Made by a program: the position numbers and the translations under genes
Shown: in pieces, positions 9,146 through 46,805 of the stretch
Numbering within the stretch: position 1 is the first letter of the stretch
Layout: the number at the start of each line of letters is the position of its first letter
Origin: Rhizophagus irregularis
Taxonomy: Eukaryota
Reading direction: 5' to 3'
Length of the DNA: 64,000 bases
Assembly: GCF_026210795.1 (NCBI RefSeq)
Contig: NC_089432.1
Coordinates: 4,588,001-4,652,000, forward strand
Notes under the pieces: generated by a model
Databases searched by the model: none
What the model was told of the DNA's origin: nothing
Seen by the model: the letters and a program-made list of their open reading frames with translations, nothing else

Positions 9146-9149
9146 CAAT

Positions 9150-9870: not shown

Positions 9871-10047
9871 CATGTCCTATTTTTCCTTTTTGTTTCCTAT
9901 CACTTCTCATTACTCTTTTTTACTCCCTTTCTTCTTCTATTACTTTCCATTACTCCATTGTTATTTCATTTTTTTTATTGGCATCTTTCTCCTTGATCAT
10001 TGTCATTTACTTATCTTTTTTATTTATTTTATTCATTTTTTCAATTG

Positions 10048-13983: not shown

Positions 13984-14086
13984 TTTCAAATTAAAAGAAT
14001 AAAATGATTGATAAATTTAATAAAATATTTATTTAGAGTAATGTATTTACTATTTTAAATAAAAAAAAATAATGTAAATTTACATT

Positions 14087-15589: not shown

Positions 15590-17465
15590 ATAAAATGACA
15601 AAACCAAGTACTTCAAAACTAGAACATTTGGCCCAAAACCTTTAGCTCCAAAACCTTTAACACAATTAGTTCTAAATCCTGTACCTATTCCTCCACAAAA
15701 CCAAATGTCCTCAGGCTTTAAAATGAGTTATAGAACGGATACTTTTACACTAAACTTTCAATATCCAGAAAATTAAAACAATGAAACTAACAAAGAATTT
15801 GAATATCCTTTACATAAAAATAGTGGAATTGATAATTCATTTCATGAAAAACTATATCAGTTGACATTTTGGACACGGAAACTTAAAGTTTTAATGAGAA
15901 AGATTCAACAGTTAGTTCAAAACCTTTAGCTCCAAAACCTTTAACACAATTAGTTCTAAATCCTGTACCTATTCCTCCACAAAACCAAATGTCCTCAGGC
16001 TTTAAAATGAGTTATAGAACGGATACTTTTACACTAAACTTTCAATATCCAGAAAATTAAAACAATGAAACTAACAAAGAATTTGAATATCCTTTACATA
16101 AAAATAGTGGAATTGATAATTCATTTCATGAAAAACTATATCAGTTGACATTTTGGACACGGAAACTTAAAGTTTTAATGAGAAAGATTCAACAGTTAGT
16201 TCATATTAACGTCATTATAGTGATGCATAATTAATTGCTTTTAGAATATTAAAGAAAATGAAAAAACGTATGATGGAAGAGAAAAAATGTTGAATCTCAA
16301 GTTGTAAAAAGATGGAGTGATGAAGAAATTGACATTTTATCGTCATATTTAGAAGACAATTACGAAAAACTTCAGCAAGGTAAAAATCCATTATGTACAA
16401 TTTAATTTCTACTGAAGTTATTAAGACAAAATCAAGCAAAAGTATTAAAGGCAGGATTAAACGTTTATTGGAACATATGAAAAAGTGAAAAAACAAAATG
16501 ATAAAATAGGTCTAAAAGAATTGGTATGACAAAATGAATAGAATTACAGGTATCATAAAGCATTAATCCTTCTTATATTTCAAATGTCTCTACAAGATAT
16601 ATCAGTGATAGTGATAAAGTAGAAAAAGGAAATTAAGTCAAAAGAGATACAAGAAAGTAAAAAAATTCTATCAAATCTTTGGTTAATGTTATGAATAATA
16701 TTATTCAAGCAAAGCTCAGAATATCTGAACAAAAACTTCATTAGATCGCGAGAAAATGAAATGGAACGTGAAAGAATGAATAAAGAGTTTTAATTGCAAG
16801 TAGAAAATTTTGAAGTTGAAAAGAAAAAATGGTAATTTGTAAAAGAGTAATCATTAAAAAAATAGAATTACAGTTATCACAATGTAATAACTAATTGTTG
16901 TAGACAATTTAATCATTTTATTGATAAATTTAATCAAGAAGTACAATAAAATTTAATTTTAGAGTAGATACCTTACAATAAATTGATAAATATTACTTAT
17001 TTTAACAAAGGAAGTTTTTGTAAAAGAAATATAATTTGAATAATAAAAATCATTATTTTCAATTTATAAATTTACAGTTATAATTTAATTTTATTCTTTT
17101 CAATCATAAAACTATATCTGATTAAAAGGTTGTGAACAATTTGCTCATTATCCAATTTCTCCCGCTCCTTTTCAAGCTTTCTTTATTATCATTTGTCTTT
17201 TTAATTATTGTTATTGTTTTCACAATCTATTCATATTTCATCGTGTGATTCTAAAAATAATAGAGCAAACTATCATATTTACAGCAGTTAAAATTTTAAC
17301 AGACATTTCTTTAATTCCGCCAAACTTGTTTTTTATCCTACCAAATGAATGTTCAGCAATAATTCTGCGTGATGAAAAAATACGATTAACTCTTTATTTG
17401 GTTTACTAAAAGGTTTAATAAAGAATGGTGTTAAAGGATAAGCGCTATCTCCAATTAAGACTTTC
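15590..17465. mobile_element. PIF/Harbinger transposon relic
   Basis: Minus strand ~17280-17460 encodes LIGDSAYPLTPFFIKPF...SSRRIIAEHSFGRIKNKF, a HARBI1/DDE_Tnp_4 C-terminal motif. A decayed convergent plus-strand ORF at ~15590-16860 may be the partner gene. Confidence 0.65.
15634..16203. repeat. Direct tandem duplication with a 284-bp period
   Basis: 15634-15917 is repeated essentially identically from 15918. Confidence 0.9.
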
Positions 17466-19414
17466 GTTAATGACTAGCTGTAACCTGTTACGTTACAATA
17501 GGATTAATAAATTTAAATCAATATAATAATTGAACTTTTGAGTTAATTATAAATAAATAAAAACAATAAAAAACGAATAATAAAAAAACAAACTGTTATG
17601 AGTTATTTTTGTTAGCATTAATAATTAATGATAATTAATAATAAAAAAAAAACAATATTAAAATAAGTATTTTTTCGGCTGGATGATTTAAGAAATCTTA
17701 TTAGTTATTTATTTAAACTAAAAAAAAATCAAACAAAATATATTTATTCAATAACACAACATTTATTCCGATTATATCTCAGCACTAACCGATCAAAACC
17801 TAAAAGGTAAAAGAATAGGAAAAAAGAAATATTAAAAAAAAATAGCCAAAAAAAAATTTTATTAAAAAAATCGAGAAAAAAGGTATTTATCATAGTACCA
17901 CAGCATCGATCTAATTGCTGCTGATGAAATATCTGCCAAATAAGATTACGAATATGCACAAATAGGTTAGAAATACTTCAAAAAAAAAAAATAAATAATT
18001 TATAATAAATTCTTTCTTATTATTAAAATCGTAAAATTTAAATCAATTAAATCAATTAAATTCTCTAAATTATTTTTTTTTATAGTTGTATACTAAGATA
18101 TAATAAATAAAAGTCTTACCAATTTTTATAATCATCCTCAACCTCAAGTATTGCAAGTATTTTTTATTATTATCAAGTTAACTGAATATTTATATTTTTT
18201 CTTATAAATTAAAATGTCGTTCTAGGATTTACAAAACTCATGATTCCGAAAATTTAATTGTTTAAAATAATTGATGCTTATTTGTTGACACTGTTTTTTT
18301 GAAATGATCTTATATACAAAAAAAGTACAATGAAGTAGAGGCCCTCTATTGCATAGTACCAATATTTTCCAAATACTCTGTGACGAAACACATGGTATTT
18401 TCGACGTAGATCCACGTAGGATATAGGGAGTATGGAATTCCACATATTTCTGGATAGTAAATGATTTTTTTCTGATGTAATAAAAAATTATTCGAATGCT
18501 TTTTTAAGGTTTAATTGAATGAATACTACCTAAATAATAATAAAGTGTTGAATCCAAATTAATCATCATTTGATTTTTTATTAAACAATTATATATTTCA
18601 ATTTAAATTTATATCATGATTATTGAAATAATTTAAAATAAATTTTTTTCTTGATTTAGAACCTTTTCCTTGATACTATTTTATGTTAAAATACTATTCT
18701 CTTATTTAACACTTTGATGGTTGTATCTTTATTTTTTATAACTAAAAAATTTTGTCTGCCGTTTAGAATAGTCTCCATATAAATAATTTAACATAAAAAC
18801 CCGTGCCATAGTATGAAAACCCGTAACATATTTGCGCCCGATCTATTCCTTATTTATTATTACACTAAATTACGTAATAATTTCTTTCATTCAAACTTAT
18901 TAAACCATATATTTTTATTTAAACCTATATTTACGATCAATCATTACATCTTAAAAAAAAAAAAAAATAATTATAATTCTAGAAATTCTTCTCTTAGATA
19001 TGACTTTTTTAGTAGACGGAAATAATAAATTGGATGGTTTCTTATAATTTTTCATGTTCATTATTCGCCACGTCGTTTATTTAAAATAAATTCAATTGAA
19101 AATAACTAAATTGACTTTTCATCAATCATGTTTTTATTGATTTTTTTAAATAATATTTAAAAATAATAACAAATTAATAATTTTGCTTATAAAATTATTT
19201 GAAAATTAATAAGGATTCATTAAGTATGACAATCAAATTTGTTACAGTAATATTTTTCTTTTTTTGGTTATGAGGCGTAAAATACTACGCCCTCAAGATT
19301 ACAAAATTTATGTGGGCACAACATGAAGTTTTGATCAACAATTTGCATTTTACTAATTTATCTCGGAGTAACGAACTTAAAATAATTATTTCTTTCTTTC
19401 TTATTGATTGCATT

Positions 19415-21818
19415 ATGTCCACTCTTCGATATGAGTTAATTAATGCAACACTTAATAGAGTAACAACATTAACAGATACTAATATTTACAATGATATACA
19501 CAAACAATTTGAATTTCAAAAACAAACAGTCCTTGCTGATAAAATTCTTACAAATGATGAAAAAACTGAAGCGATGAGAGATTTAACTAAAAATTATGAT
19601 CGAAATAAAATTTTGGATGATGATGGTACAAGAAGAATTTGTGAAAATTGTAACCAAGAATGCTTAGCTACATTATATTGTGAATATTGTGTCCGAAATT
19701 ATTTACAAGAAAATTTTCCAAATTGGACATCCGGGAATGATGATATTGATAATTTAATACAGGAATGTCAAATGGAATCACTTAATCCACAAACGATTGT
19801 TGAATGGATCCCATATAGTAATTTAGAAAATATTAAATATTTAACAAAAGGTGGATTCTCAGAAATTTATTCAGCAGGCTGGATTAATGGAAATTATGAA
19901 GAATGGGATTTTGAAAAAAAACAATTAAAAAGATTTGAAGATTGCAAAGTAATATTAAAAAAATTAGAAAATGTCAAAAGTGCAAATCAAAGTTGGTTTG
20001 AAGAGGTTTGTATTATTGTATTCTATATTTCATAAAATTGTGATTTTTGTATTAGCACTAGTATTTTTACAAATTATTGTCTTTTAGGCTAAATCACATT
20101 TAACTATAAGTAATAAATGGGCAGATGTTGTTCGATGTTATGGTTTAACACAAAATCCATCAAATGGAAATTATATGCTTGTAATGAATAAAATGGATAT
20201 AGATTTAAGAAAATATTTACAACAAAATCATAATCAACTTACATGGAAAAAGAGAATTAATATTACTTTTGAAATAATTCTCGCACTTTACTATATTCAT
20301 TTTGAGGAAGCAATTCATAGAGATTTACATTCTGGAAATATATTATATTCACAATTAAATGATTCCTGGTATATTAGTGATCTTGGATTTTGTGGACCTG
20401 CTGATAAATCTTCAACAAGTATATATGGAAATCTTTCTTACATAGCACCCGAAGTTATTATTGGAAGAAAATATACTTTTGCATCTGATATTTATAGTAT
20501 TGCAATGCTTATGTGGGAAATTTCATTTGGACAACCACCATTTATGGATTATGAAGATGAACATATTCTTGTATATAATATTATTGATGGTATAAGACCA
20601 AAAATTGTACCAGGAACTCCATTAGAATATAAAAATTTAATGAAAGAATGTTGGGATGCTGATCCATTAAAAAGACCTGACATTTGTGCACTTGAGGATA
20701 GAATGTTAAGAATTAATTTAGATTATCAAAATATGTCAGATGAATTATTCAAATCAGAAATAGATAATTTAGAAATGAATAAAGTAGAAGAAAATTATAC
20801 GAGTAGCAGATTATTTACAAGTAAAATTCACAACTTTGGAAATCTACCTGAACCAAGAAATGCAACAGAAGGTATAAGTGTATAATATTTTATTAATGGA
20901 TGTATTTATTTTAAAATACATTATTAATGTTATCTTTTTATTATAATAATAGAAGAACAAGAAGGTATAAACGTATATAGAATTTTTGGTTACTATAATT
21001 ATATAGTTTTAAATACTTTATTTTACTGTTAATAGTGTTTCATAGTAAATTGTATGATTTTAACATTCCTAACAAAAGTAAGTATTTAATAACATTATAG
21101 CGTCGAATTATCATGTAATGATGTCTACTGATAATTAATTTTTATTTTAGTTAACGACTTTAATAAATCAAATGAGCAGTATAGTAAGAAATTATCAAGT
21201 ATAATTAATAAATGTTTTTAAAGGTGATTTGTTTGAAATAATAGATTAAAGATTAAAATCTATTTCTATGTTCTTAATTTTAGGTGATAGTGAAAAATTA
21301 CCCAAAGAATTTATAAATTTGCAAAATTCAAATAGTAAGTAAATAAGTAATATTCATCGTTTCAGTTTCATTTATTATATAACATGACTTTTATTTTAAA
21401 AATAATACGACGAAAAAGAAATTATTCAACAACAAATGTAAAGGAAAGATATTGATATTGATGGTAAGCAAAAAAAAGTAAAAATTATTTTGTCAATATA
21501 TTTATTTAATGTATAAACTTTAATTTAAAAATTTAGATGATGAAAAAGAAATAATTCAACAAAAAACTAAAAGGCAAAATATTGGTGATATTGATGGTAT
21601 GCGAATTTTTAATTTAATTTAATTTTTATATTATTTTTTAATTTAATTATTCATTTCTTACAGATGAAGATGAAGTATATAATAATCCAAACTTTCATTC
21701 AAAAGAACAAGATGAACTGGAAATTCCTGATGGTAAGTTCTTGAATAAATAAGATTTCTTTATAAAGCAAATAATTAATTTATAATTTGTCATTTTTTTA
21801 ACTTTAGATGGATTTTGA
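19415..21818 (+). CDS. Multi-exon protein kinase (Glomeromycotina-type expanded family), copy 1
   Basis: Exon 19415-20005 (CxxC motifs, WTSGN, KGGFS); exon 20088-20871 (HRDLHSGN, DLG, APE, DIYS); then several short acidic 3' exons, including a 12-nt one at 20953-20964. Probable premature TAA at 21439-21441 in the tail. Confidence 0.85.
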
Positions 21819-23833
21819 ATAATCATTTAACAATTTTATTTTTTATATTTTAAATTATTATCATTTATTTATTTATTTTTTTATCTTGGATTATTTAAAC
21901 ACTAATAAGACTAGAGTAGTAAATGTTTTACAAAATTCTTAGTTTGTAATTTAAATAATTTTAATAAATTTATTCAAATATTAAATGTATTTACTACCGT
22001 ATATTGATCGTAAATTTATGTCATAAACTGATAAACGTTATAAAATCATGACAGATTATTCCATTCGTTATACGTGAATTTATTAAACAAGTTGAAAGAA
22101 TAATCTTGTTAGGACTAAAAAAATTCTCAGTTAATTTATATATATATTGTAAATAATAACTAGGGATACTTTAATGAATTAAACAGGTTGCCATATCATT
22201 AAACACATCGCAGCCATTTGGTGATGAAGCTATAATTGTCTAATAACTAATATCCATACTATTACTAGTCCTAAACTAAAAATAGATAACATCCAAGGCA
22301 CTAATCCTAAGTAACCAAATTGACTTAGTAGTAATCATAGCCCGACCCTGTAGAATTTAAATTATAATACACCTCACACTATATCAACCATTATTTACCA
22401 AGGACAACAAACATAATGAAACTACAACAAAAGGGAACTTGCAATCCACTAAATCCAGCCAATATTTTTTATTTTTATTTTTACTTTTTATTACTAGGCA
22501 GGAATGTAGAAGCAATATAATTAATATAATTTCTAAGAAAATACATAAACTTCTACACTGTACAATGTGTAAACGAAGAAACAACTAGTACATATACGAA
22601 TGAATTAGATCAAAGTAAACTAGTAATGATTAATCTCTTCATGTAGCGCTACCGCCTGACTTGTTTGCTACCCCACGTGCACTTGCCCAAAACATTCACG
22701 TTATCGTAGAGAAATCCGTTGCTGGTAAGTGAGTCATAATTAGTCAATGTGAGTGAACGCTGATTTTTCTTCTACGATAATATCAAATATTCTGCTTTCT
22801 CATTTCTAACCAGTAATATTAAATTCTTATGTAGGTAATTTTCTTGATGTAGCTTCTCTGCAGAAAGGAATCGAGGATCTTGAAAAAAAAAAAAATTAGG
22901 AAGCAATATCAATATAGAATAAAAGGAAAAAAATAGCCGAAAAAGAAATAATATCGATAAGAAAAAACCAATATTTTATTCTTAGACATAAAATATCCAT
23001 CGGGAACGTACACATGACCCAACAGGCCAACCAAATTATTTTAACTATAATAAACATGGAATAGATCGGCGCCAGACATACAGTACGCATTTCCATGTTA
23101 CATAATTTAAATTATTTATACAGAGAGTAAACTAAATATTACCAAATTTTTTAATTATATAGATTACTCTACTTATAACGTAAATTAAATTCTAGATCCC
23201 GAATTTCCAGTTTCAGCTTCCAGTTAAATTCATTTCAATTCTTGCGGAACCATAGGTATTTTATCATTACTTTTTTTTAAAGACTACAGAATGGGGTTTC
23301 ATCATTTAATAATTATTCATTAATTCATTTGCCAATAATAATTAATAATGTCAATAAATCCTCCGCTGCTGATATTTAATTTTATGTGAAATTAAATAAA
23401 ACAATGAGTATTACTTTAGCGGGTTAGTTTGACCAACAGGAAATGTTTTAGACGTGACCTGCGACGGAGGAATTTCTTATGAAAAATTACGTGAACTTGT
23501 GTAAACTTACATAGAATTACGTCCAACGAATATTACATCTAAGATAGTTTCCGGATGATATTTCTTTCCCATAAAGCTTTAAGCAATTTTTTTAAAAAGG
23601 ATCGCATTAATATTTATCTTTCATAATCATTTCTTTCACACATGCAATTATTCCATATGGTAGTATTGAAAAATAAGTACCAATTATTTTTTAAAAAAAA
23701 AAAAATTTCAAATCTTCATAAAATACTTGCTATAATAATATTGATTGTTAAATTTAATAAGACCTTTATTTATTATATTTCAGAGTATACAATTTAATAA
23801 AGATAGAATTTAATATATTTAATATAAATTACA

Positions 23834-24934
23834 TTATTTTTTAAGTTTTTTCAATTTATTTTTTGCTTCCTGATAACCTTGTTTGGCAGATTTTTCATAC
23901 CAATAAATTGCTTTGTCTATATCTTTTGTAATTCCATCTCCATGTTCATACATATTACCAAGATTAAATTGTGATGTAATACTTCCTAAATTTGCTGATT
24001 GTTGATATAACTCAAATGCTTTTAGCTTATCTTCTTCAGTTCCAATACCGTTATCATAACAATAACCTAATGAAGTCATTCCACTTGCATATCCTTCTAT
24101 AGCTGATTGATTAAATAATTTAAAAGCTTTATTATAATCTTTTTTAACACCTTTTTTTCCATACTTATAGCAATTACCAAGATAATGCATAGCTATTACA
24201 TTTCCATTATTTGAAGCTTTTTCATACCAATAAAAGGCCTTTTTTATATCTTTTTTAATACCTATTCCATTTTCATAAAAATAACCAATTCTTAATTGTG
24301 CATATGCAAAATTTTCATAAGCAAATTTTTCTAAATAATCAAAAGCTAATTTTTCATTTTTTATAGTACCATAACCAAATTGATAACATTCACCAACATA
24401 AGATTGTGCTAACATATGATTTTTTTTTAATGCATCAATAAATAAATTAAATGCTTTCTCATTATTTTCTTTTGTTTCAATTCCAAAATAATTAAAATAT
24501 CCAAGTAAAAAAATGGAATTTGAATTATTTTGATTATTTAATAACCAATTATAAATTTCTTTTGAATTAGTATTATAATTATTAAAATGGTCAATAATTT
24601 GTTTTTTTAATAATTTAACATCAATTCCTTTATTAAATGATTTAAAAATTAAATCATTTATTTCATCAACTATTATATCAAAACCTTTTTCAAATGAAAT
24701 TTTTTCTCGTTCATTTGATATTGTTATAGGATTAATTTCTTTTAAATTTATTTTGTTAAAATATTGATGATTAAGTTGAAATAATTCACCTTGTGATTCT
24801 GAATTATTATCAAATTTTTTATTGCTTAAATATTGAGTATTTACTGATATATTTGTTATTGTAATGATCATTTCTTCAATCCTATTATTACATTCATTCG
24901 TATTGGTATCTTGCATTTTCTTATTATCAGACAT
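23834..24934 (-). CDS. Sel1-like repeat protein, paralog 3
   Basis: ORF with SLR repeats; start at MSDNKK by homology; downstream flank is homologous to the flank of paralog 1. Confidence 0.9.
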   Translation of the reverse strand: MSDNKKMQDTNTNECNNRIEEMIITITNISVNTQYLSNKKFDNNSESQGELFQLNHQYFNKINLKEINPITISNEREKISFEKGFDIIVDEINDLIFKSFNKGIDVKLLKKQIIDHFNNYNTNSKEIYNWLLNNQNNSNSIFLLGYFNYFGIETKENNEKAFNLFIDALKKNHMLAQSYVGECYQFGYGTIKNEKLAFDYLEKFAYENFAYAQLRIGYFYENGIGIKKDIKKAFYWYEKASNNGNVIAMHYLGNCYKYGKKGVKKDYNKAFKLFNQSAIEGYASGMTSLGYCYDNGIGTEEDKLKAFELYQQSANLGSITSQFNLGNMYEHGDGITKDIDKAIYWYEKSAKQGYQEAKNKLKKLKK

Positions 24935-27900
24935 ATTGAAATATAAATAATTGGCAAAAAGTTTCAAAATGATAGGATGACGGTAACAAAAGTAACTCCT
25001 TTTTAAGTAATTTATGCGTATTATTCTCCGAATATTGTCGCACAGCGCCATTAGCGGTCAATCATTAGCCGCAGTACCACAATTGCCATAGAAAAATGAG
25101 ATGTTTGCGTGATTTTATGCCGATCATTTCTAAAAATGTTAAGTCAAATAAGTTAAATAAGTTAATTATATCAATATTGCGTAACTCTCCATTTACGTCG
25201 ATTAATAAAAGTATTAAATTTTTGTCTTGTTGATAGATAATTCTTTTTGGGTAATGCAAATATTTGTAATTTTTATAAACTTGATAGATGATATTATTAA
25301 ATTTAAACTTTTCAATTTTTTTTTTTAAGAATTTTATCTAATTTTAAAATTTTAATTGTTTCCACTAATAAAATTGGTTATATTACTTATTTTATAAAAA
25401 TAAATTTTCATTTATAAAAAAAGAATCCATGGATAAAATTCACCAAATAATAGCGAACAATTGTGCAAATTATTATGAATAAAATAAAATTATCCAGATA
25501 TGGTATTGTAAAAAAATTGGTGAACAATACTTTTCTTCTAATAATAGAAATAAATATCTTAAGATCGATCAATTTAAAACTTAAGAAATAAAACTGAGAA
25601 AAATTTTATTAGCAATACAACGACTTAAATAAGTCTTATACTATTCACATGTAATAGTAATTTTTAAATTGTTTACAAAAGTTCTTTTGTAAATGGTTGT
25701 TTAAGACCCACATTTACTAAAATTAATCATCCAAATATATTATTTTTTTCTTTATAGTACTCGACTCTGTATCTTCACCATTTTCATGTTTAAAAAAATA
25801 AATGATCTTATTCTCATCCTTATGATAAGCAAAGGATATTGCATTATCTAAGGGCATAAGGGATGAATACATTGACGCAAAAATATAACTTTAGTTATTG
25901 ATAAATTCGCCTTAACCAAAAAAAGAAATAAATATCTTTTTTTCTAAAAAAAAAAAATTCGATATGTATATATTTTCTCATATATGCATTAAATTAGAAT
26001 AAAAATACTTTAAAAAGAGATAAATCAATAATATTTTAATTAAAAACCTTTTTAAGTAAACAAAATAATTTTAATAGTGAATAGTGTGAATTAAAATCAA
26101 TATTTGATAAATAATTAATTTATTAAAAGCTTTTATAAATCAACACTTTAACACTCAGTCATATTTTCATTAAAAAAAAAAATACATATTTACTTGCAAT
26201 TTTTTTTTTAATAAATACAAAAAATAAATTTTTATAAAATAAATAATTTTTAATCATTAGCACATTTCATTTTCTTCTCATGCAATGGGAATCCTATTCC
26301 AACATCATTTTTTTTAATATATATATAATAACTTTTACAATGTTAAAAGATTATACTATTATAATTCTGGAAAGAAATACAGTTATATAATAAAAAAAAA
26401 AGAAATAATTTTTTTTTTAATATATATATCATATATTAAAATTTATTATATTATTTAGAAGGGAACCTTTTCATGGCGATATTAAGCGTTTTTGAAAAAA
26501 AAATTCATACTTTTATATTATAAAAAAGTTAATTACTAATCCCACATATATAAGGAATAGGTTATGCACCTTCCCTTATAGTAGTTAAAATTTTATAATA
26601 TTAATATTTATATATAAATATATTAGCAATATATTGTTTATTTCAAAGTTAAATATTTTATAAAGTTAATGGAAAAGAAAACTATTCTTCCTACAGCAAG
26701 TAATATTTTATAATAGTAATTAAAAAATTAGTCCATGTGGAACAGTTCATATTAGTAATTAAAAAATTATTTATATAAATAATTTTTATACATATAAAAA
26801 ATAAGCCTAAAGGAGAAATCAGTTATGTATACTTATACATAAAATAATTGAAAAAAGCTTGTATTTTTGTATAAACTATTAACTATTTAATTAGTATTTT
26901 TTATTTATTTTGAATATACATAAAATATTCAATTATATATTTTCCTATAGTAGTTGTAAAATACACTGACAAACATTTTTAATATCATATACTGTATACA
27001 TTTTAATAAAATAATTCAACAGTTAACATCTGTCCGGTAATTACGATATATTAATTTATTTATAATTCTACTATTGTGATTTATTTAAAAAATTAAGACA
27101 GAATACATTTAACATTAACATCTAAAGTAACAAAAAGGCAACACTAGAAACTATATTCAAAGTTACTGGCTAAAAAAAAAATAATAATAATTATTGTGCA
27201 AATACAATATTAGTAAAGTTATATAATTTTATGATATCAAAAGTCAATGGTATATCTGACGATAACTATTGGATAATTATATATTTTGTAATATAAACAA
27301 CCTACAAGTTTACTCTATTTACTTATCGTAAATAATTTTCTCCAATGTTTTTTTCCGTAGATTTTATTTATATTATAATATGTAATAAAAGTAAAGTATA
27401 GATAAATTATATATAGAATTTTGTTTTTTACAAAAAACTTTCATTACATAGTAGCATAACTAAAAACTATTCCAGTATAATTTCATTATCTATTACTTAT
27501 TCTAAAATTTTTTTGACACATTATTTTTAGTCAGTACTGTAAAATCACAAATCCATTGCATTTATTTTGATACTATGACGAACTTAACCTATCACATGAT
27601 TAAATCATTGTTTACCAAAATATTAAAAGACAATACTTTCATTCCCACCATTACCAGTGATTCGCGCAGTAGGCGCAGCGTACATTACTTTTCTTTACCA
27701 CAAAACCTGAAATATAGTCTTCCTATCCTCAAAAATTGATCATTGAAAAAAAATAAAAATCCACAGTATAATGTAATCATATTTGATGATATTACAACCA
27801 ACTTTATTAGAGCAATAGAGCAATAATAATGAGATACTTAGATAAGCAAATAGTTAAAACTAAATGATTGTTTTACTTAAATCATGAATAATAAAGTTAA

Positions 27901-29282
27901 CTAATAATTAAACAACAAATTTAACATGTAAGTACTATTGCACAAAAGAAACAACAAACAATATAGACAAAATTAATAGTATAGGAGTATAGATTTAAAT
28001 TTTAGAAATTCCTTTAAATAATAAGGAATATTAGAAAGATTTTGGTTATGATAGATAACAATAATGAAAAATCTTTAATAAATTTAATAAAACATCAATA
28101 ACATCAAAGGAGTATATACAAGGATCAATTTACAGACTAAATAGTAAATAAACCGATCATTTTTATGCTCGATTAGTAAAGTTATTGAAAAATGTGGGAT
28201 TTTAGAAATAGTTAAGAAAGAAAAATTATAAATTATGGTCTAACAAAATCAGTAAAAAAAAAAAATTTTTTATGCAAAATTTCACACAAAAATGGACAAG
28301 AAAGAATTCTATATTAGAAATAAAATTTTGAATATATTTATTATATTACATATATGATCAATTCTCAAAACTAATAGGATCGATGTGAGAATGGGATAGC
28401 GAATTCTCAACATTGGAAATCATTATCCTAACTACTAATTAGTCGATAAATCGATTTTTAAAAAAAAAATTAGCAATACAACTATAATTATATAAACAAT
28501 CCCACAATTGCTATCTAAAAATAAAGATAAATATTCTTTACTTTGAATAAATTTTTTAGTGTGAATTTAAATTTTTAAAAAAATTTGTTTTGTTTACATA
28601 AAATCCTTTATGTTTTCTATTTTTATGTTGATCCCATATTTTGCAATCAGACCCTTCTAAAATTCAATTTAGTAAAGGCTAGATAATAGGCAATAAGTTT
28701 AAGCACAGCGCAGTACTATAATGAGCCATAATTATAAATGAGCCATAATTATGAACCATAATTATAAATCAGCATCAATAATATAAACTGACCAAAGAGA
28801 AATTTGTTTACATGCATGGCATAAAATGGAGATTAATATATAAAGCATTTTCACGTTATTTAAAGAAAAAATAATGTTAACTTACAGCTGACTGTTTAAA
28901 ATTATCATTCTCACTTACCATATCACCCTTAACTGCTTAGTTTGCATTTTTAATCGATGAAGCTTTGAATGTAATCAAGGCAACGAATACAATACAATAA
29001 CATAATTTCCTATCCTTGCTCCCGTCACGTTATTTATATTTATACATTAAATTTGGGAGTGAGAAATCACCCAAATGAGTAACAAATTTAATTCCATTTT
29101 TACATATTTAGCGATAGTATGCTTTTGGATGATAAATTTCTGACGATCATCTTCCATATTTATTCACTTTTTCGCTCAATATGGAATTTGTTATGCGATC
29201 TTCATACATTTTTTCATAGTTTCAGAAATGCACAACGTGAACTTTAATTGTTCAATTTTATATAGCTATGTTTTATAGTTAT

Positions 29283-29354
29283 ATAGCAATAGCAATTGCT
29301 ATTGCTATTGCTATTGCTATTGCTATTGCTATTGCTATATAGCTATAGCTATAG
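29283..29354. repeat. (ATTGCT)n microsatellite with inverted arm
   Basis: atagcaatagcaa-ttgctattgctat... forms a palindrome running into a hexamer repeat. Confidence 0.8.
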
Positions 29355-30119
29355 ACACTAAATAGCAAAAAATATTGCTTTTACCAAATTGCTTCTTTTG
29401 ATATCATTAGAATAAAATTACAAATTAAGCATTCCTGTGCCACTTTCATTGCATGTTTAATTTAGTCATCAAATAATAGGATTTCACATCAAATTTGATT
29501 TAGATGATCTTCAAAGAAATAAAGCTACGAATATTTTTTTTTCTAAGCTAAAAAAAAAACCCCAAAATATTGTGTTACATCTTTTTTTTTTTGCAGGAAA
29601 AAAAAATTGGTTGGATAAAAAAAATATTGCGTCATAAATAGATCTTGGATTTTTTTAAAAAAAATCATTTTTCTTTCTTTTTTTAGAAAGAAACATCATT
29701 TTTTTTGATTATCATTATCCAATTACAATACTTATCATTATTTAACTCCCTTTTTTTTCATTTTACTAAAAAAAAAAAAAATTTTTTCTTGGAAGGAAAC
29801 ATTTTTATTAATATTTCCTTTTATTTTGTTATGTTCAAACAAGTTTGGATAGGTGGAAAGGTGAATTTTGTAATAGTTTACTTTGTTACGAAACTTAGTA
29901 TTTTTTATTAGAGAAATTTCTAGAAAAAATTAATTTTTTAATTTTTTTATTTTTTTGTAGGGTATTTGACTCTAATAAAAATTATATAAACTTTTTAAAA
30001 ATAAAAACATTAACGTTTTTTTCTTTTTTTGTAAAGAAATCAACTGGATATTGGAATCTCAATAAGTTTCAAAATTTGAAACTTTTAAAAAAAAATGATG
30101 TTTTTCTTTATTTTTGTAG

Positions 30120-33100
30120 AGAAATTGGTTCCGATTTGGATACCAGATCTCCAATAAGTAAGTTTCGATTTGAAACTTTTAAAAAAAAATATTTTTTTTT
30201 TTTAATTTTTTTTTCTTCTATTTTGTAGATTTTGGCTCCGCGTTGGATATATGGGTGAGTTTTGAGGTGAAAGCTTCAAAAAAAAATTATTTTTAATTGT
30301 TTTGGCTTCCAGTTCCTAAGTATTGAATATAATCAATATATAGATGATAACTATGAAATTTTTTTAAAAAATTATTTAATTTTTTTTTCTTCTACTTTGT
30401 AGGTTTCAGCTTCTAGTTCTTGGACGTTAGATGGGTAAGTTTTGACTTCGGAACTTAAAAAAATTTTTTTTAATTTACTTATATTTTTTATTTATTTTGT
30501 AGGTTCAGCTTTTAGTTTTTGAACTTTGAGTATATAGGTGAGTTTTAGAACGAAAGAATTGAACCTTTTTTTTAAAAAAAAAATTTTTTTTTAATTTTTT
30601 TTTCCCTCTATTTTCTCTATTTTGTAGATCTTGGCTTTTGGTTCTTGGGTGTTAAGTATATAGATGAGTTTCAGAGTGAAAGAATCGAAGCTTTTTTTTT
30701 AAAAAAAAAATCAAATTTTTTTAAATTTTTTTCTTCTATTTTTGGCTTTTGGTTCTTAGGTGTTGAATATATAGGTGAGTTTCGGAGTGAAAGAGATGAA
30801 ACTTTTTTAAAATAAATTATTTATTTTGATTTTTTTTTTCTTCTATTTTGTAGGTTTGACTTTCGATTCTTGAGTGTTGAATATATAGGTGAGTTTCAGA
30901 GTGAAAGAGACGAAATTATTTTAAAATAAATTATTTATTTTGATTGTTTTTTTCTTCTATTTTGTAGGTTTGGCTTTCGGTTCTTGGGTGTTGAATATAT
31001 AGGTGAGTTTCGAAGCAAAAGAGCCAAAACTTTTTTAAAATAAATTATTTATTTTGATTTTTTTTTTCTTCTATTTTGTAGGTTCGGCTTTCAGTTCCTG
31101 GTATTGAATATATAGGTGAGTTTCAGAGTGAAAAAGCCGAAACTTTTTTTAAAATAAATTATTTATTTTGATTTTTTTTCTTCTATTTTGTAGATTTTGG
31201 CTATCAGTTCTCGGGCGTTTGATATTGGTGAGTTTTGAAGCGAAACCTTCAAAACTTTTTAAAAATAAATTATTTATTTTGATTTTTTTTTTCTTCTATT
31301 TTGTAGATTTCGGCTATCAGTTCTTGGGCGTTTGATATTGGTGAGTTTTGAAGCGAAACCTTCAAAACTTTTTAAAAATAAATTATTTATTTTAATTTTT
31401 TTTTTCTTCTATTTTGTAGGTTCAGCTTTCGGTTCTTGGTGTTAAATATATAGGTGAGTTTCAGAGTGAAAGAGCCGAAACTTTTTTTAAAATAAATTAT
31501 TTATTTTGATTTTTTTTTCTTCTATTTTGTAGATTTCGGCTATCAGTTTTTGGGCGTTTGATATTGGTGAGTTTTGAAGCGAAACCTTTGAAATTTTTTT
31601 AAAAAAAAATTTTTTAATTTACTTATTTTTTTTTTATTTTGTAGGTTTCGACTTTCGGTTCTTGGACGTTTGTTATTGGTGAGTTTCGAAGTGAAAAAGC
31701 CAAAACTTTTTTTAAAATAAATTAATTTATTTTAATTTTTTTTTCTTCTATTTTGTAGATTTCAGCTTTTGGTTCTTGGATGTTTGATATATAGGTGAGT
31801 TTTGGAGCGAAAGAGCCAAAATTTTTATTAAAATAAATTAATTTTTAATTTTTTTTTTCTTCTATTTTGTAGGTTTCGACTTTTGGTTCTTGGATGTTTG
31901 TTATTGGTGAGTTTCAAAGCGAAAAAGCCAAAACTTTTTTTAAAATAAATTAATTTTTTTTAATTTTTTTTTTCTTCTATTTTGTAGATTTCAGCTTTTG
32001 GTTCCTGGTGTTAAATATATAGGTGAGTTTCAGAACGAAAGAGCCAAAACTTTTTTTAAAATAAATTATTTATTTTGATTTTTTTTTCTTCTATTTTGTA
32101 GATTTCGGCTGGTGTTTGATATAGGTGAGTTTTGAAGCGAAACCTTTGAAATTTTTTAAAAAAAAAATTTTTTTTAATTTACTTATTTTTTTTTTATTTT
32201 GTAGGTTTCGACTTTCAGTTCTTGGACGTTTGTTATTGGTGAGTTTCGAAGCGAAAAAGCCAAAACTTTTTTTAAAATAAATTAATTTATTTTAATTTTT
32301 TTTTTCTTCTATTTTGTAGATTTCAGCTTTCGGTTCTTGGATGTTTGATATATAGGTGAGTTTTGAAGCGAAAGAGCCAAAATTTTTATTAAAATAAATT
32401 AATTTTAATTTTTTTTTTCTTCTATTTTGTAGGTTTCAGCTTTCGGTTCTTGGAAGTTTGATATATAAGTAAGTTTCAAAGCGAACGAGCTGAAACTTTT
32501 TTTAAAATAAATTATTTTAATTTTTTTTTCTTCTATTTTGTAGATTTCGGCTTTCAGTGAGTTTCAAAGCAAAAACTTTGAAAGTTTTTTTAAAAAAGTT
32601 TTTTAATTTACTTACTTTTTTTTATTTTGTAGATTTCAGCTTTTGGTTTAGATATATAGGTGAGTATCGGAATGAAAGAGCTGAAACTTTTTTTAAAATA
32701 AATTATTTATTTAATTTTTTTTTTCTTCTATTTTTGTAGATTTCAGCTTTCAGTTCTTATGCGTTTGATTTAAAGGTAAATTTCAAAGTTTTGTTTTCTT
32801 TTCAAAACTTTAAAAATTTTTTTTAATTTTATTTATTTGTTTTTTTATTTTGTAGTTATCGGTTGTAATATCCTTGGGCTTTGGATAGGTGAGTATTGAA
32901 GTTTTGCTTTCTTTTTGAAACTTTAAAAAAGATTTTTAATTTTATTTTATTTTATTTTATTTTATAGGTAATGGCTGCGACATCTCATTGGGCTTTGGAT
33001 CGGTAAGTTTCATTTTCTTTTCAAAACTTTTTTAATAAAAATTATTTTTTAAAATTTTCTTTTATTCTGTAGGTTTCGACTGCAATATCTCCTTAAACTT

Positions 33101-33480
33101 TGGGTCAGTGAGTTTCAAAGTTTCGTTTTTTTCAAACTTTCAGAAAAATTTATAATTTTATTTATTTTTTTTATTTTGTAGGTATCGGTTGTGATATCTT
33201 TGGGCATTGAAATGGTAAGTTTTGAAGCAAATACTTCAAAACTTCTTAATAAAAATTGTTTTTTAATTTGACTCTTTCTTTATTTTGTAGGTTTCAGCTG
33301 CGATATCTTTGGATCTGTGAGATTCAAAGAATGCTCCAGAATTTTCTTTTTAAGGAAATTGACTCCGATTTGGATACCATAAGTAAGTTTTGATTCAAAA
33401 CTTTAAAAAAAACTTTATTTTTATTATTTTTAATGTTACTTTTTCTTTTTGTAGGGAAATCGGCACCTGAATCCCAATAG
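30120..33480 (+). repeat. Tandem array of ~30 intron/short-exon units (~110-115-bp period)
   Basis: Recurring TTTTGTAG | 13-36 nt (mostly 33-36) | GTGAGT/GTAAGT. Confidence 0.85.
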
Positions 33481-33844
33481 TAGATCTTTTATAAATAATG
33501 CACGATTTTTATAGGACTTTAGCTTCTATGGAATTTCTTATCTTTATTTGTTGTCTGTTGGAATCGAACCAACTGGAACCAATATCCAAACCATTAACAA
33601 CATGTAAATTTTTAGTAAAGGTGGAATTTTAATTATTAGCATACAGTAAATTATTATTTTTTTTTTGTAAATACTTTTAATAAATGCTTTTAATAAATAT
33701 GATAATGTTAGTTGTCACTTATCATTAAATAATTTGAATCAAAAAAAAAAAAAAATTAAATTTTTTTTGTTAGAGCATTTTATAAACGCCAGTAAAATGC
33801 AATTTGATTTGATATTGACATTTCAATACACAAAATTAAACAAT

Positions 33845-33879
33845 GGGGGACGAAGTCCCCCGCAAAACGCAATTTCTAG
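33845..33879 (+). mobile_element. Helitron-type 3' terminus
   Basis: Perfect hairpin gggggac-gaa-gtccccc (33845-33861), then CTAG (33876-33879) followed by T. Confidence 0.75.
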
Positions 33880-33884
33880 TTTAA

Positions 33885-35630
33885 TATATAATATCTACGT
33901 ATAATTTTAACTAACTCAATTCTTCATTTAAAAATTATTTCATAATATAGGATGTAAGTAATTTATTTAATTCTGTTATTTCATTTTTATATAAATTTAC
34001 ATATAATTTAAACTAACTAAATCTTATTTAAAAAATTGTTAATGATATAGGGGGTAAGTTAGTTATTTAATTCCATTATTATATATAAATAAATTTAAAC
34101 TAACTAAATTCTTTATTTAAAAATTATTTAATAATATAGAGCGTAAGTTATTTATTTGATTCTATTATTACAGATTTATATGATATTTAAATATAACTTA
34201 AACTCACAAATTCTTTATTGGAAAAATTATTTAATAATATAGGGGGTAGTTATTTATTATTTATTTAATTCTATTATTACATATTTATATAATACATATT
34301 TACATATAACTTAAACTAACTAAAATTCTTTATTCTAAAAAAAACTTTTAATAATAGTATATAGACTATAGAGTGTAAGTTATTTATTTAATTCTATTAT
34401 ATATTTATATAATATTTGCATAACAATTTAAGCTATCTAAATTTGTTATTTAAAAAATTATTTTTGCAATTTCTTTCAGTTGGTAAGTTATAAGTTATTT
34501 ATTCAATTCTATTATTACATATTTGTATAATATTTACATATAACTTAACTAATTCAATTCTGTATATTAAATAACATAGAACATAAGTTATTTAATTCAG
34601 TCTTTATTTATATATTTATATAATATTTATATATAATTTAACCAAACTAAATTAATTAATTATTTAATAATAGGAGGTAAAGCTATCTATTTAAATTTAC
34701 TATTATATAAATTATGTAGTAATTTAAACTAATTAAATTCTTTATTCAAAAAATTATTTAATAATATAGAGAGTAAGTTATTTATTTAGTTATATATTTA
34801 CATGATATTTACAATAATTTACATATAATTTGAACTAAATAAATTCTTTATTTAACAGTTAGTAAGTTATAAGTTATTTATTCAGAATCTATTATTATTA
34901 TTACATATTTAAATAGCTAAATTCTTTATTTGAATAATTATTTAATCATTTATTTAATTCTATTATTACATATTTACATAACATCTACATTAATTTAAAC
35001 TAACTTCTTTATTTAAAAATTATTTAATAATATACTAGAGAGTAAGTTATTATTTAATTCTGTCATTACATATCTATATGCATAATTTAAATAACTAAAT
35101 TCTTTATTTAAAAAATTATTTTGTATTCACTTTTAGTTGGTAAGTTATAAAGTTATCTATTTTAATTCAATATTTACATATAATTTAATTTAAACTAACT
35201 AAATTCTTTATTTAAAATATTATTTAATAATATAGGGCGTAAGTTATTTAATTAATTCTATTATATAATATTTACATATAATTTAAAACTAATTAAAACC
35301 TTTATTAAATAATTATTTAATAATATAGGACGTAAGTTATTTAATTCTATTATTACATATTTATATAATATTTACATATAATTTAACTAACTAAATTCTT
35401 TATGTATAAAATTATTAATGATATAGGTCGTAAGTTATTTATTTATTGCACATTATAATATTTGTATATGATTTGAACTAACTAAATTCTTTATTTAAAA
35501 AATTATTTTGTAATTTCTTTTAGTTGGTAAGTTATAAGTTATTTATTTAATTCTATTATTATCACATATTTATATAATATTTACATATAATTTAAATTAA
35601 TTAAATTCTTTATTTAAAAAATTTATTTGT
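33885..35630 (+). repeat. Tandem array of AT-rich introns separated by 3-nt micro-exons
   Basis: Unit of ~90-130 bp: ACTAAC-like branch point ... YAG | NNN | GTAAGT; 16 occurrences. Confidence 0.85.
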
Positions 35631-35708
35631 TGTTTTATCATCATATATTTTATATAATATTTATTTGCTAACTGAATTTTTTCATTTGAAAAATATCTAT
35701 TACATTTT

Positions 35709-35907
35709 CCCTATAAAAAATTTTTATCCGAATATTTCCATTATTTCTCTGTGTCTTCCGTAAAAATTCCGTGAAAATGATACATTCACGGATATCCGTG
35801 TTAGCGAGATGAAAATTTCCATGATTTAAGGCTATAAATTCCATGAAAATGATACATTCACGGAAAAAACATGGAAAGATAAAACACGGATCAGATTTTT
35901 TACAGGG
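35709..35907. mobile_element. Small TIR element (unclassified MITE)
   Basis: ccctataaaaaa / ttttttacaggg termini with T-tracts on both flanks; internal repeat of gaaaatgatacattcacgga. Confidence 0.65.
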
Positions 35908-36077: not shown

Positions 36078-37264
36078 AAGAAGGAGTGGAAATGCAATTC
36101 TGGATGAATTTATCTTTAAAAAGGATTTAAAATGGATTTCTTATAATCAATTTATTAATGTTGAATATCTTAATCAAGGAGGATTTGGTATTATATACAA
36201 AGCTATTTGGTTAAATGATTATAAGGATGAAGAAGTAATTCTTAAATGTCATGATAAGTTAAATGAAAATTTAAATGAATTTTTACATGAAGTATGATAT
36301 TAACATATTAGTATATTATTTTTTTTTTAATAATTATTTATACTGATTGATTATTATTTTTTTTTTTATAGTGGAAATACCATGAAAGATGTTTAGATTC
36401 AAATAATATCATTAATTTTTATAAATTTACAAAAAATCCAGATAATTTAAAATATATGGTAGTAATGGATTATGCAAACAAAGGTAATTTAAGAGAAAAT
36501 TTAGCAAGAATAATCAAAAATAATTGGAAACAAAAATTATATATGTTGTATGAGATTATTTCTGGACTTAATGAGATACATCAGCAAGATCTTATTCATT
36601 GTGATTTTCATGATGGTAATATTTTAAGTCATAATGATAGGAATGAGGATAAAATTTATATTAGTGATTTGGGATTATGTCAACCTGCAAAATCATTTTT
36701 AAAAGAGTACGTTATTTTTGGTGTTATACCATTTATGGCACCTGAAATTTTAAGAGGCAAAGCTTATACTCCTGCTAGTGATATATATAGTTTTTCTATG
36801 ATTATGTGAGAACTTACAGGATACCACCATTTAATAACAGGGCACATGATATTCAACTTAGTTTAAGTATTTGTAAGGGTGAACGTCCTGAAATTATTGA
36901 AAATACTCCACAATGTTATGTAGATTTGATGAAAAAATGTTGGAATGAAGATCCATTAAAAAGGCCATCATCTGAAAAAGTCTTAGATATTATTAAGAAA
37001 TGGATTTATCTTCCTTATGAAATGAAATTTGAAGATATTGATGAGAACTTAAAATGCAGTGTTATGGAATTTATAAATACACCAATTAAGCATAACACTC
37101 TTGTTACTGAATCTCATTCGCAAGCATGTTATACAAGTCGCTTACTTGATTTTAGTAGTAAAAACTTAAATGAAATTCTTGAAAATGAAGATTTACAAGC
37201 TAGTATGAAAGTGAATGAAATGCTAGTAAGCGAAGATTTAAATAATTGTATAATTAAGATTTGA
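36078..37264 (+). pseudogene. Protein kinase with premature stop and frameshift
   Basis: Exon 36078-36291 (SGNAILDEFI, QGGFG, VILK); exon from 36372 (HCDFHDGN, DLG, APE, DIYS). TGA at 36807-36809 where Trp is expected, followed by a frameshift. Confidence 0.8.
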
Positions 37265-42764: not shown

Positions 42765-44225
42765 TATATATTATTAATTATTTAATAAAATTAATAAATA
42801 ATCCTTGTTCTCTATTTATTGCATTATATAAAAATCACGTATTTGATCTGCAATCACATGACATATATCCAATCATTTGTGTGTTGTTAACGTCACAGAT
42901 GAATTTCATGAATTTCAATAAAATGAAACAATTATTTGGTATTTTCAAAATCAGAGACTTTAAACGATAATTCCACGTGAGGAGGGGAAACTTGAATAAA
43001 ATTATTTCAAGTAAATCTCTTGGAATTTAACGATCATAACTTATAGGAGAGGATTTTTTTAGTTTAAAAACATAAATACTGTATTACTGTAACATCTTTT
43101 TTTTTTGGACTTTTTTATAAGGATTGGTTTTTGACTCTTGTGTAAGTGAATATTATCCAGGGTGTGGATTCTTTTTTTTTCATATTAAGAATGTAACTAA
43201 CATTCTTCAAATCGATGTCATTTTATTTGTATAAATAAATACAAGATCTATTTTGGAAGTTTCTTGATGGTCCCTTTTTATATATAGAAGTATTGTTTTA
43301 AAGAGAAATTGAAAGTACTTTTATATAAAAAAATATATTTATATTATCTCATTATTAATTAACGCCATACGTTAATTTTATAAACATCTCATTAATAAAA
43401 AATGAAGATAAAAAATTGAATCTATATAGATTTAATAGATTTTAACAATTTTTAATAATAACATAATAAATATAATTTGTTTCATCATATATCTTTTTTA
43501 ATGATACATTTTTTAAATACTCAAATAAATTTTTTTTAAAAAATTAGCATTAATAGCATAATAAAATTTTATTTGATACTTTTTTTTTTGAACAACAATT
43601 TCATTTATAATGAAAGATAATTTTTTAAAAAATAATTTCATTTTTTTAAATTTTTTTGGGCCATACCACACATTTATATTTATTTATAAAAAATACAAAT
43701 ACAATATATTCAAAAAAAATGTACTAAACAGTTGATCCAACTCCCCTACGTACCCTTTCCATCTATTATCATCCACTGATCCACAACAGTTTTTGACCCA
43801 GCATAATTTCAATTAAACAGCAGTACCGCTTGATAAATCTGGAGCCAGATGTAAATATGATTTTACCAATAGTACTAAAATGAGTTAATTAATTTTGAAA
43901 AATTAAAACTAAATTTGGATGGCAAAATTCTGGTGGTGCGCTGCAGTAAATTGTGTTTTTTTTATTTTATAACAAGAGGTTATTGTAAAAAATTGAAAAC
44001 AAATTTTTTAATATAGAACGTGTGCACAATATCATGTTATACTTTCATGAGGTCATTTAATAATTTGAATAAATTTATTAAATTATTTAAATTACAAACT
44101 AAGAATTTTGTAAAACATTTACTACTCTAGTCTTAGTGTTTAAATAATCCATGATAAATTAATAAGTGATAATAATTTAAAATATAAAAAAAAAATATTG
44201 TTAATTTAATCTATCAAAAGACAAT

Positions 44226-46630
44226 TTAAAATCCATCTAAAGTTAAAAAATAACAAATTATAAATTAATTATTTGCTTTAAAAAGAAATTCAATTTATTT
44301 AAGAACTTACCATCAGGAATTTCCAGTTCATCTTGTTCTTCTGAATGAAGATTTGGATTATTATATACTTCGTCATCATCTGTAAGAAATAAATAATTAA
44401 ATTAAAAAATAACATAAAATTAAATAAAAAATTCGCATACCATCAACATCACCAATATTTTGTCTTTTCGTTCTTTGTTGAATTATTTCTTTTTCATCAT
44501 CTAAAATTTTTAAATTAAAGCTACATTAAATAAAATATATTGACAAAATAATTTTTACTTTTTTTTTGCTTACCATCAATATCAATATCTTTCCTTTTCA
44601 TTTGTTGTTGAATTATTTCTTTTTCGTCATATTATTTTTAAAATAAAAGTCACGTTATTTAATAAATGAAACTGATACAATGAATATTATTATTTCACTT
44701 ATTTACTTACTATTTGAATTTTGCAAATTTATAAATTCTTTGGGTAATTTTTCACTATCACCTAAAATTAAGAACATAGAAATAGATTTAATATTTAATT
44801 AATTATTTCAAATAAATAACCTTTAAAAAATATTTATTAATTATACTCGATAATTTCTTACTATACTGCTCATTTGATTTATTAAAGTCGTTAACTAAAA
44901 TAAAAATTAATTATTAGACATCATTACATGATAATTCAACGCTATAATGTTATTAAAAACTTACTATTGTTAAAAACGTTAAAATCATACAATTTACTAT
45001 GCAACACTATTAACAGTAAAATAAAGTATTTAAAACTAAATAATTATAGTAACCAAAAATGGTAGAAATTATTGTTATACCTTCTTGTTCTTCTATTATA
45101 ATAAAAAGATAACATTAATAATGTATTTTAAAATAAATACATCCATTAATAAAATATTATACACTTATACCTTCTGTTGCATTTCTTGGTTCAGGTAGAT
45201 TTTCAAAGTTGTGAATTTTACTTGTAAATAATCTGCTACTCGTATAATTTTCTTCTACTTTATTCACTTCTAAATTCTCTATTTCTGATTTGAATAATTC
45301 ATCTGACATACTTTGATAATCTAAATTAATTCTTTCCATTCTATCCCAAAGTGCATAAGCGTCAGGTCTTTTTAATGGATCAGCATCCCAACATTCTTTC
45401 ATTAAATTTTTATATTCTAACGGAGTTCCTGGCACAATTTTTGGTCTTATACCATCAATAATATTATATACAAGAATATGTTCATCTTCATAATCCATAA
45501 ATGGTGGTTGTCCAAATGAAATTTCCCACATAAGCATTGCAATACTATAAATATCAGATGCAAAAGTATATCCTCTTCCAACAATAACTTCGGGTGCTAT
45601 GTAAGGAAGATTTCCATATATACTTGTTGAAGATTTATTAGCAGGTCCACAAAATCCAAGATCACTAATATACCAATAATCATTTAATTGTGAATATAAT
45701 ATATTTCCAGAATGTAAATCTCTATGAATTGCTTTCTCATCATGAATATAACTAAGTGCAAGAATTATATCATAAATAATCTTAATTCTCTTTTTCCATG
45801 TAAGTTGATTATGATTTTGTTGTAAATATTTTCTTAAATCTATATCCATTTTCATCATTACGAGAAAATAATTTCCATTTGATAGATTTTGTGTTAAACC
45901 ATAACATGGAACAACTTCTGCCCGTTTATTACTTATAGTTAAATGTGATTTAGCCTAAAAGACCATAATTTGTAAAAATACTAGTGCTAATACAAAAAAT
46001 TACAACAATTTTATAAAATATAGGATACAATATACAAACCTCTTCAAACCAACTTTGATTTGCACTTCTAACATTTTCTAATTTTTTAAGCACTATAACA
46101 TGATTTCCGCGTCTCTTTAATTGTTTTTTTTCAGAATCCCATTCTTCATATCTTCCATTAATCCAGACTGCTGAATAAATTTCTGAGAATCCACCTTTTG
46201 TTAAATATTCAATATTTTCTAAATTACTATATGGGATCCATTCAACTATATCCTTTGGCTCGAGTGATTTCATTTGACATTCCTGTATTAAATTATCAAT
46301 ATCATCATTCCCGGATGTCCAATTTGGAAAATTTTCTTGTAAATAATTTCGGACACAATATTCACAATATAATGTAGCTAAGCATTCTTGGTTACAATTT
46401 TCACAAATTCTTCTTGTTCCTGAATTATAATTAATTTTATCTCGATCATAATTGTCAATTAAATATCTTATTGCTTCAATTTTTTCATCATCTGTAAGAA
46501 TTTTATCAGCAAGGACTGTTTGTTTTTGAAATTCAAATTGTTTGTGTATATCATTGTAAATATTAGTATCTGTTAATGTTGATACTCTATTAACTGTTGC
46601 ATTAATTAACTCATATCGAAGAGTGGACAT
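44226..46630 (-). CDS. Multi-exon protein kinase, copy 2 (inverted paralog of 19415-21818)
   Basis: Same exon-intron structure and highly similar sequence; HRDLHSGN, DLG and APE are intact. Confidence 0.85.
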
Positions 46631-46805
46631 AATGCAATCAATAAGAAAGAAAGAAATAATTATTTTAAGTTCATTACTTCGTTACTCCGAGATAAATTAG
46701 TAAAATGCAAATTGTTGATCAAACTTCATGTTGTGCCCACATAAATTTTGTGACCTTGAGGCGTAGTATTTTACGCCTCATAACCAAAAAAAGAAAAATA
46801 TTACT

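Follow-up and report, generated by a model that had tools for sequence, protein, structure and literature searches.

A tandem array of about thirty predicted exon-intron units next to a Helitron end in the genome of Rhizophagus irregularis

Introduction

Non-autonomous Helitrons of maize possess a CTRR 3' end followed by a T, lack a transposase, and carry exons giving rise to spliced and alternatively spliced transcripts; their cargo consists of unrelated host-gene fragments (PMC4528327). In Drosophila, a central tandem array is embedded in the Helitron family DINE-TR1 and has spread with it, its units not being described as introns in the sections of the report that deal with the array (PMC6947457). 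It is also known that, in human paralogues, internal tandem repeats located at exon-intron boundaries form new introns, the number of introns in multi-copy loci being increased when a unit that includes splice sites undergoes unequal crossing-over or slippage; these loci are mostly protein-coding and lie in segmental duplications (PMC2812944). Lastly, codon-sized microexons are known in the nank (NACHT-ankyrin) genes of Tuber melanosporum, where a run of 3-nt exons, subject to alternative splicing, occurs in an expanded fungal gene family (PMC4986451), and isolated exons of 1-3 nt have been reported in Coprinopsis (10.1101/2024.05.10.593147).

The window analyzed in this work, i.e., the whole stretch of 64,000 nucleotides of R. 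irregularis DNA to which all positions refer, has a G+C content of about 24%, and its gene content includes Sel1-repeat and protein-kinase genes. Two arrays of very short predicted exons, hereinafter array 1 and array 2, are adjacent in it. Array 1 shares with the maize elements the type of 3' end, the lack of a transposase and the exon-bearing cargo, its splicing being a prediction only, and differs from them in consisting of about 30 copies, in tandem, of a single exon-intron unit without a recognizable donor gene. It resembles DINE-TR1 in being a tandem array that has probably spread within a Helitron family, whereas its unit comprises an entire intron, the splice signals of which are conserved. 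The multiplication of a splice-site-spanning unit in a multi-copy locus recalls the human tandem repeats, but array 1 is likely the non-coding cargo of a fungal transposon. Array 2, in turn, matches the layout of the Tuber genes, except that its host would be a glomeromycete protein kinase, in a broken copy, and that its 3-nt exons are predicted. Array 1 seems to be a variation on known kinds of element, being likely a Helitron-borne tandem exon-intron array whose transcript is likely spliced and non-coding; its unusual point would be the selection acting on the splice sites of such a cargo. Literature searches disclosed no description of either array.

Results

Organization of array 1

Array 1 (30120..33454, plus strand) is composed of about 30 tandem units with a period of about 113 nt, each made up of a short exon (13-38 nt) and an intron of 68-90 nt (about 79 nt in a typical unit) that begins with GTRAGT and ends with TAG. 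Between 30120 and 33316, 28 internal exons were parsed, 27 of which are 13-38 nt long while one, of 147 nt, is fused; the 27 introns lying between them measure 68-90 nt in 26 cases and 148 nt in the remaining one. Eleven core units were also used to construct a profile, with which a search that did not require GT/AG detected 30 units from 30155 to 33361, in line with the ~30 of the initial annotation, and no other match in the window at E<1. The six exons named in that annotation were also recovered with the same coordinates and lengths. TRF assigned to the core a period of 114, 17.3 copies and 79% matches. The density of GTRAGT is 8.1 per kb in array 1 versus 0.30 per kb in the remaining plus strand, and the introns are about 80% A/T. 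The core is young and homogeneous; the units at both ends are diverged, with tree distances of 0.3-0.5.

The initial description needs to be corrected in two respects. Firstly, two units are dead. One exon (30299..30340, approximate ends), recognized by unit parsing and alignment, has lost both acceptor and donor, and in one intron (30664..30740) neither the donor (GT to AT) nor the acceptor has survived, which fuses two exons into that of 147 nt; this intron is translated as retained in the public protein models P0121 and P0129. Secondly, the models of the family described below add upstream exons. The first one (29831..29860, plus strand) has an ATG at 29831 and donors at 29853 and 29861, and 22 of 26 models begin with its translation. 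It is followed by a degenerate "type B" exon (30037..30065, plus strand), read from the sequence, with an AAG acceptor and a weak donor, which is translated in models such as P0135 and P0144. This second exon type flanks array 1 on both sides, at 30120 and at 33355: the plus-strand exon 33355..33382 has an AAG acceptor, resembles exon 30120-30157 (75% in a self-BLAST of 33347-33454 against 30113-30228), and is used by P0141, P0143 and other models.

A terminal exon is predicted at 33455..33755 (plus strand), its first codons ending 15 of the 26 models. Its presence had been recognized in the initial annotation with a start at 33454, which has to be moved to 33455 since the acceptor ends at 33454. 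It contains two AATAAA motifs (33679 and 33692), the A-tract noticed previously (a genomic A15 at 33741), and an ORF of 34 codons (33528-33632) having no match in Pfam.

A dispersed family of gene models

One genomic frame of array 1 matched one public model, P0121. When this was used as a query, 27 clusters were retrieved, 26 of them at E<1e-6 and every one named R. irregularis; a search of 1.8 billion representatives yielded 10 matches, six of which were new and likewise from R. irregularis. In both searches, homologues of the array 1 models were confined to this species, and pattern scans of viral contigs and prokaryote genomes retrieved nothing. The family models take the exons of the window in order, though in differing frames. 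They are located on three contigs with the locus prefix OCT59 (OCT59_001007/8, _024320 and _024666) and on three further contigs in the GBC/GET series; the CAB437-440 series would span eight contigs, if it represents one assembly, as is suggested solely by the decrease of contig size with increasing accession number. Since models on several contigs share the first and the last exon, array 1 belongs, judging from these sequences, to a repeat family dispersed in the R. irregularis genome.

Some consecutive accessions (P0141/P0142, P0166/P0167 and P0154/P0155) differ in exon choice alone, as isoforms do. Pipelines of the BRAKER type output such isoforms when given RNA hints. One R. irregularis annotation was produced by BRAKER with RNA-seq and long reads, as outlined in PMC10234402, and the isoform-like accessions are to be regarded as just a hint of RNA support. 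The "proteins" of the family are probably exon chains threaded by gene predictors, and the R. irregularis "hypothetical proteins" GLOIN_2v1777839 and relatives are probably an annotation artefact. P0148 and P0176 are more distant R. irregularis models, in which a 12-residue repeat is chained in one frame; together with P0178, which also has this repeat, they suggest the existence of a sister array family with 36-nt exons.

Conservation of splice signals

The conservation of the splice signals was evaluated on an alignment of 28 units, whose boundaries were set so as to place AG and GT inside the rows and which include the two dead units (the first exon and the last of the 30 units lie beyond these boundaries). 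In the three splice columns, the guanine is retained in 78/84 cells versus 486/756 for the other G/C-majority columns, and versus 309/476 once the CpG columns, to which many of the variable ones belong, are removed. On the tree, the splice guanine columns changed 1, 2 and 2 times, versus a median of 5 for the 17 non-CpG columns (p=0.007 in a rank test, an optimistic value, as are the other p-values for the array, because tandem units are not independent and convert one another). An equal degree of conservation is seen in two G/C columns outside the splice sites. Donor positions +2, +4 and +6 are invariant in 28/28 aligned units, position +3 is only A or G in the working ones, and the 29 GT donors comprise 21 GTGAGT, six GTAAGT and two others. 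GT or AG has been lost four times, in two clean pairs that correspond to one dead exon and one dead intron, thus leaving a clean splicing pattern. The presence of TAG at 28/28 acceptors is circular, the acceptors having been chosen by AG, and the branch-point-like TRAY found ahead of all 28, which lacks a null, carries little weight in DNA so rich in A/T. Three RNA runs contain 0.07-0.12 of the sampled words, which represents unplaced word sharing and no evidence of splicing.

The retention of splice signals in most units, asserted in the initial annotation, therefore holds with the exception of the two dead units, and the comparison of GT/AG with neighbouring positions that it had put forward as a check came out in favour of the splice sites: the splice signals of array 1 are conserved beyond neighbouring positions. 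The transcript of array 1 is predicted to be spliced, and it is likely that selection acts on splicing itself more than on the exon sequence.

Coding potential

Only 8/28 exons have a length that is a multiple of three, in agreement with the previous statement that most do not, and the idea that no conserved protein is encoded agrees with all the tests performed. Stop-free exon-frames are 44/81, versus 41.0 +/- 3.4 in shuffles; the codon periodicity of exon changes is absent (p=0.69); Pfam gave no match for array 1; and four diverged exons are read in two frames by the public models (16 v 5, 13 v 5, 15 v 3 and 11 v 1). If all exons are spliced together from the family ATG, 19 residues are followed by a stop. 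As the frames differ between models and the coding tests are negative, the array 1 RNA is likely non-coding. Coding on the minus strand or in unspliced form was considered and rejected, the longest stop-free stretches being of 79 residues in the genomic frames and 113 in the reverse of the spliced RNA.

Schistosoma micro-exon genes of the MEG type have symmetrical 3n micro-exons and one conserved frame throughout; array 1 has few 3n exons and no single conserved reading frame, and in the lack of a conserved ORF it is similar to spliced long non-coding RNAs. The columns of the exons undergo fewer changes than those of the 5' part of the intron (3.1 v 4.7), which suggests that the exons may not be wholly free; this, along with the 12-residue single-frame repeat of the two distant models, makes a coding ancestor conceivable.

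The Helitron 3' end

Helitrons start with TC next to a host A and terminate ahead of a host T, a GC-rich hairpin lying ~10-20 nt upstream of their 3' CTRR. As previously noticed, the block is closed by a Helitron 3' end (33845..33879, plus strand), in which a GC-rich hairpin occupies 33845-33861 and CTAG 33876-33879; a T comes next, and the window contains no other end of this kind. When the hairpin and CTAG pattern served as a query in one metagenome scan, 16 A/T-rich related loci were retrieved, in all of which (16/16) a T follows the end. Two of them (L002 and L007) are 96% alike across 2177 nt up to CTAG and different beyond it, and another one (L008) is a RepHel-coding locus, encoding Helitron_like_N and PIF1 just upstream of its Helitron end. 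The ends of these loci match those considered as Helitron-defining in PMC4528327. On the basis of these sequence features, the hairpin and CTAG of the window are a true Helitron 3' end.

The resemblance between the 16 loci and the window is limited to the last ~40-60 nt, and array 1 is present in 0/16 of them, 11 of which have at least 700 nt upstream. Beyond CTAG, the sequence begins midway through an intron that belongs to another gene, as an insertion would give. In the window, no 5' TC end of a Helitron was found and the upstream half of the interrupted intron and kinase gene is absent, which makes a simple insertion a tentative reading. Given the dispersal of the family and the mid-intron junction after CTAG, it is likely, but unproven, that array 1 is carried inside a Helitron.

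Some repeats can be recorded in this context. An ATTGCT microsatellite (29261-29354) lies about 500 nt 5' of the first exon of the family and could be near the 5' end of the element. A 20-nt tandem repeat is located upstream of a helicase fragment in L002 (27-981) and L007 (15-849), and a 20-nt tandem repeat of the window (9148-9872) looks, by eye, like its reverse. In another related locus (L010, 1529-1653), a tandem pair of Helitron-type ends is separated by about 90 nt.

CpG decay

At the six CpG sites of the array 1 units, CG occurs in 45, TG in 51 and CA in 42 of 168 cells. This decay in both directions is a mark of past methylation, and it argues against a full escape from silencing. The CpG observed/expected ratio, in turn, is 1.22 in array 1 versus 0.25-0.39 in three neighbouring genes, in favour of a partial escape or of youth. 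R. irregularis methylates CG and its Helitrons give small RNA (10.1101/2021.03.30.436303).

Discussion

The reading that we prefer is that array 1 represents a dispersed R. irregularis family, likely a non-autonomous Helitron, whose ~30 units are predicted to be spliced into a likely non-coding RNA of ~1.3 kb; taken as a whole, its chances of being right or wrong appear evenly balanced. Two-thirds of the repeats of this genome are unclassified (PMC11075540). The array has probably grown by unequal crossing-over or slippage of the whole exon-intron unit, so that each duplicated unit would arrive with functional splice sites; the finished array has probably spread later by rolling-circle copying of the Helitron, and the copy of the window would have been inserted into an intron of a kinase gene.

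The selection on splice sites in a likely non-coding cargo needs explaining, since Helitrons copy as DNA and should need no splicing. In Cryptococcus, spliceosomes stalled on transposon introns recruit RNAi (PMC6232588), which raises the possibility that clean splicing could let the element pass as self. Efficient splicing would keep its transcript mRNA-like and off the RNAi route that stalled spliceosomes trigger. Provided that the rest holds, the avoidance of this route is our preferred reason for the selection, albeit a tentative one that falls short of being probable. In its full form, this proposal ("intron camouflage") holds that some 30 copies of an optimal intron have been generated by a DNA transposon and that selection at the level of the element keeps the splice sites, because dense and clean splicing lets its transcript evade the RNA surveillance of the fungus. 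We regard it as unlikely; if true, it would be a transposon adaptation built purely from introns.

Among the alternatives, the one that survives best, though still rather unlikely, is that array 1 is the relic of a once-coding repeat-exon gene, whose ancestral symmetrical 33-/36-nt exons encoded a hydrophobic repeat of 11-12 residues and which was captured by a Helitron after or during its decay; the conservation of the splice sites would then be left over. This would account for the 12-residue repeat that P0148 and P0176 chain in one frame, for the 36-nt exons of the window that are open in that frame (3/4), for the opening of 4/5 of the most diverged 3' exons in another frame, and for the dead intron, which is stop-free if retained. 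It fits less well with the young core, where the splice signals are kept even though 34-/35-nt exons and internal exon deletions (13, 23 and 27 nt) arose there, and with the lack of any excess of open frames or of codon periodicity.

According to a second alternative, array 1 is a satellite that derives from a single ancestral exon-intron unit and is neutral, GT/AG having survived only because the units were copied recently and converted one another. The young core with its 79% matches, the CpG decay in the units, and the fact that tandem repeats are common in these Helitrons (e.g., the 20-nt repeats of L002 and L007) are all in keeping with it. Nevertheless, the diverged end units keep GTRAGT and TAG, the donor position +3 is restricted to A/G in working units, and the losses are paired, which makes this explanation quite improbable.

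It might also be that exon skipping selects in-frame subsets of exons from a combinatorial cassette, giving a variable hydrophobic peptide, as the public models assume. These models reach 334 residues, neighbouring accessions are isoform-like, and a kinase with codon-sized exons exists in the same genome region. Free exon skipping does leave 6768 paths open, the longest of 152 residues using 10 of the 30 exons, but these are 6768 of 2.7e8, and they use at most about one third of the exons; moreover, the frames differ among models and homologues occur only in R. irregularis, so that we consider a cassette of this kind very unlikely.

Scarcely to be credited is a host gene with disposable exons for intron-borne small RNAs (mirtron- or snoRNA-like), since, in spite of a layout like that of snoRNA host genes and of a short stem covering the intron 5' end in many units (z below -1 for 15/30), neither a known RNA family (no Rfam match at E<=1 in 30500-33390) nor a covarying intron structure was found, 71/500 shuffles reaching the covariation score, the changes in the stem being accounted for by CpG decay, and the introns being about 80% A/T. 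For the same lack of covariation above shuffles, the intron 5' hairpin was rejected as a selected RNA structure. Introner-like elements, which are almost identical introns each inserted alone at an unrelated site in a gene, were also rejected, as the units are in tandem with paralogous exons and no lone copy lies elsewhere in the window.

Coming back to the preferred reading of a likely spliced, Helitron-borne family, its copies with different arrays form a natural series in an extensively sequenced root symbiont for which RNA, small-RNA and methylation data exist, so that a link between splicing and silencing is directly testable.

Array 2 and the broken kinase gene

Immediately after CTAG, the flanking host DNA opens in the middle of an intron with array 2 (33880..35622, plus strand), which was absent from the initial annotation. 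It consists of 16 predicted exons of three bases each between paralogous introns of ~86-177 nt, with AG ahead of 16/16 triplets and GT after 15/16. In the main subtype (12 units), the splice guanines are kept in 23/24 cells versus 19/36 for the triplet majority (p=0.0004); in a free alignment of all 16, where four units are in another register, the difference is smaller (38/48 v 59/96, p=0.04). The G+C content is 52% in the triplets and 13% in the introns. Open frames across the 16 codons are expected by chance.

A broken protein-kinase gene follows (36079..37264, plus strand), with an in-frame stop and a frame change near 36800 and without a 5' exon in the window. Each of its blocks is 96-100% identical to the annotated R. 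irregularis model P0036, which bypasses the break by means of an intron. Array 2 likely belongs to this gene. The region between them (35690-35900) contains repeated and inverted motifs, possibly a small inserted element, and the start of P0036 is drawn from there.

Among 120 relatives of the kinase, four models (P0031, P0039, P0108 and P0113) translate an array 2 intron as coding, and eight have mosaic Gly/Ile/Leu/Met/Arg-rich stretches directly before the kinase exon. Models of this kind suggest that the layout with single-codon exons likely runs through the whole kinase clade, where it might serve arbuscular mycorrhizal fungi as a means of diversification; the literature searches disclosed no published account of such a clade. 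A kinase-helix reading of the third frame of array 2 was dropped, since a phase-0 reading fits the paralogue models better.

Other features of the window

An inverted pair of kinase genes (19246-21987 on the plus strand and 44054-46805 on the minus strand), 92% alike over 2.8 kb, bears tails of small duplicated exons. Three paralogous Sel1-repeat genes (617-2022, 13998-15367 and 23734-25081) are 78-83% alike. At 15634-16203, two perfect tandem copies of 284 nt might reflect either a recent duplication or an assembly artefact. Finally, two young tandem arrays, with periods of 77 (98%) and 94 (95%), adjoin each other at 58759-59591.
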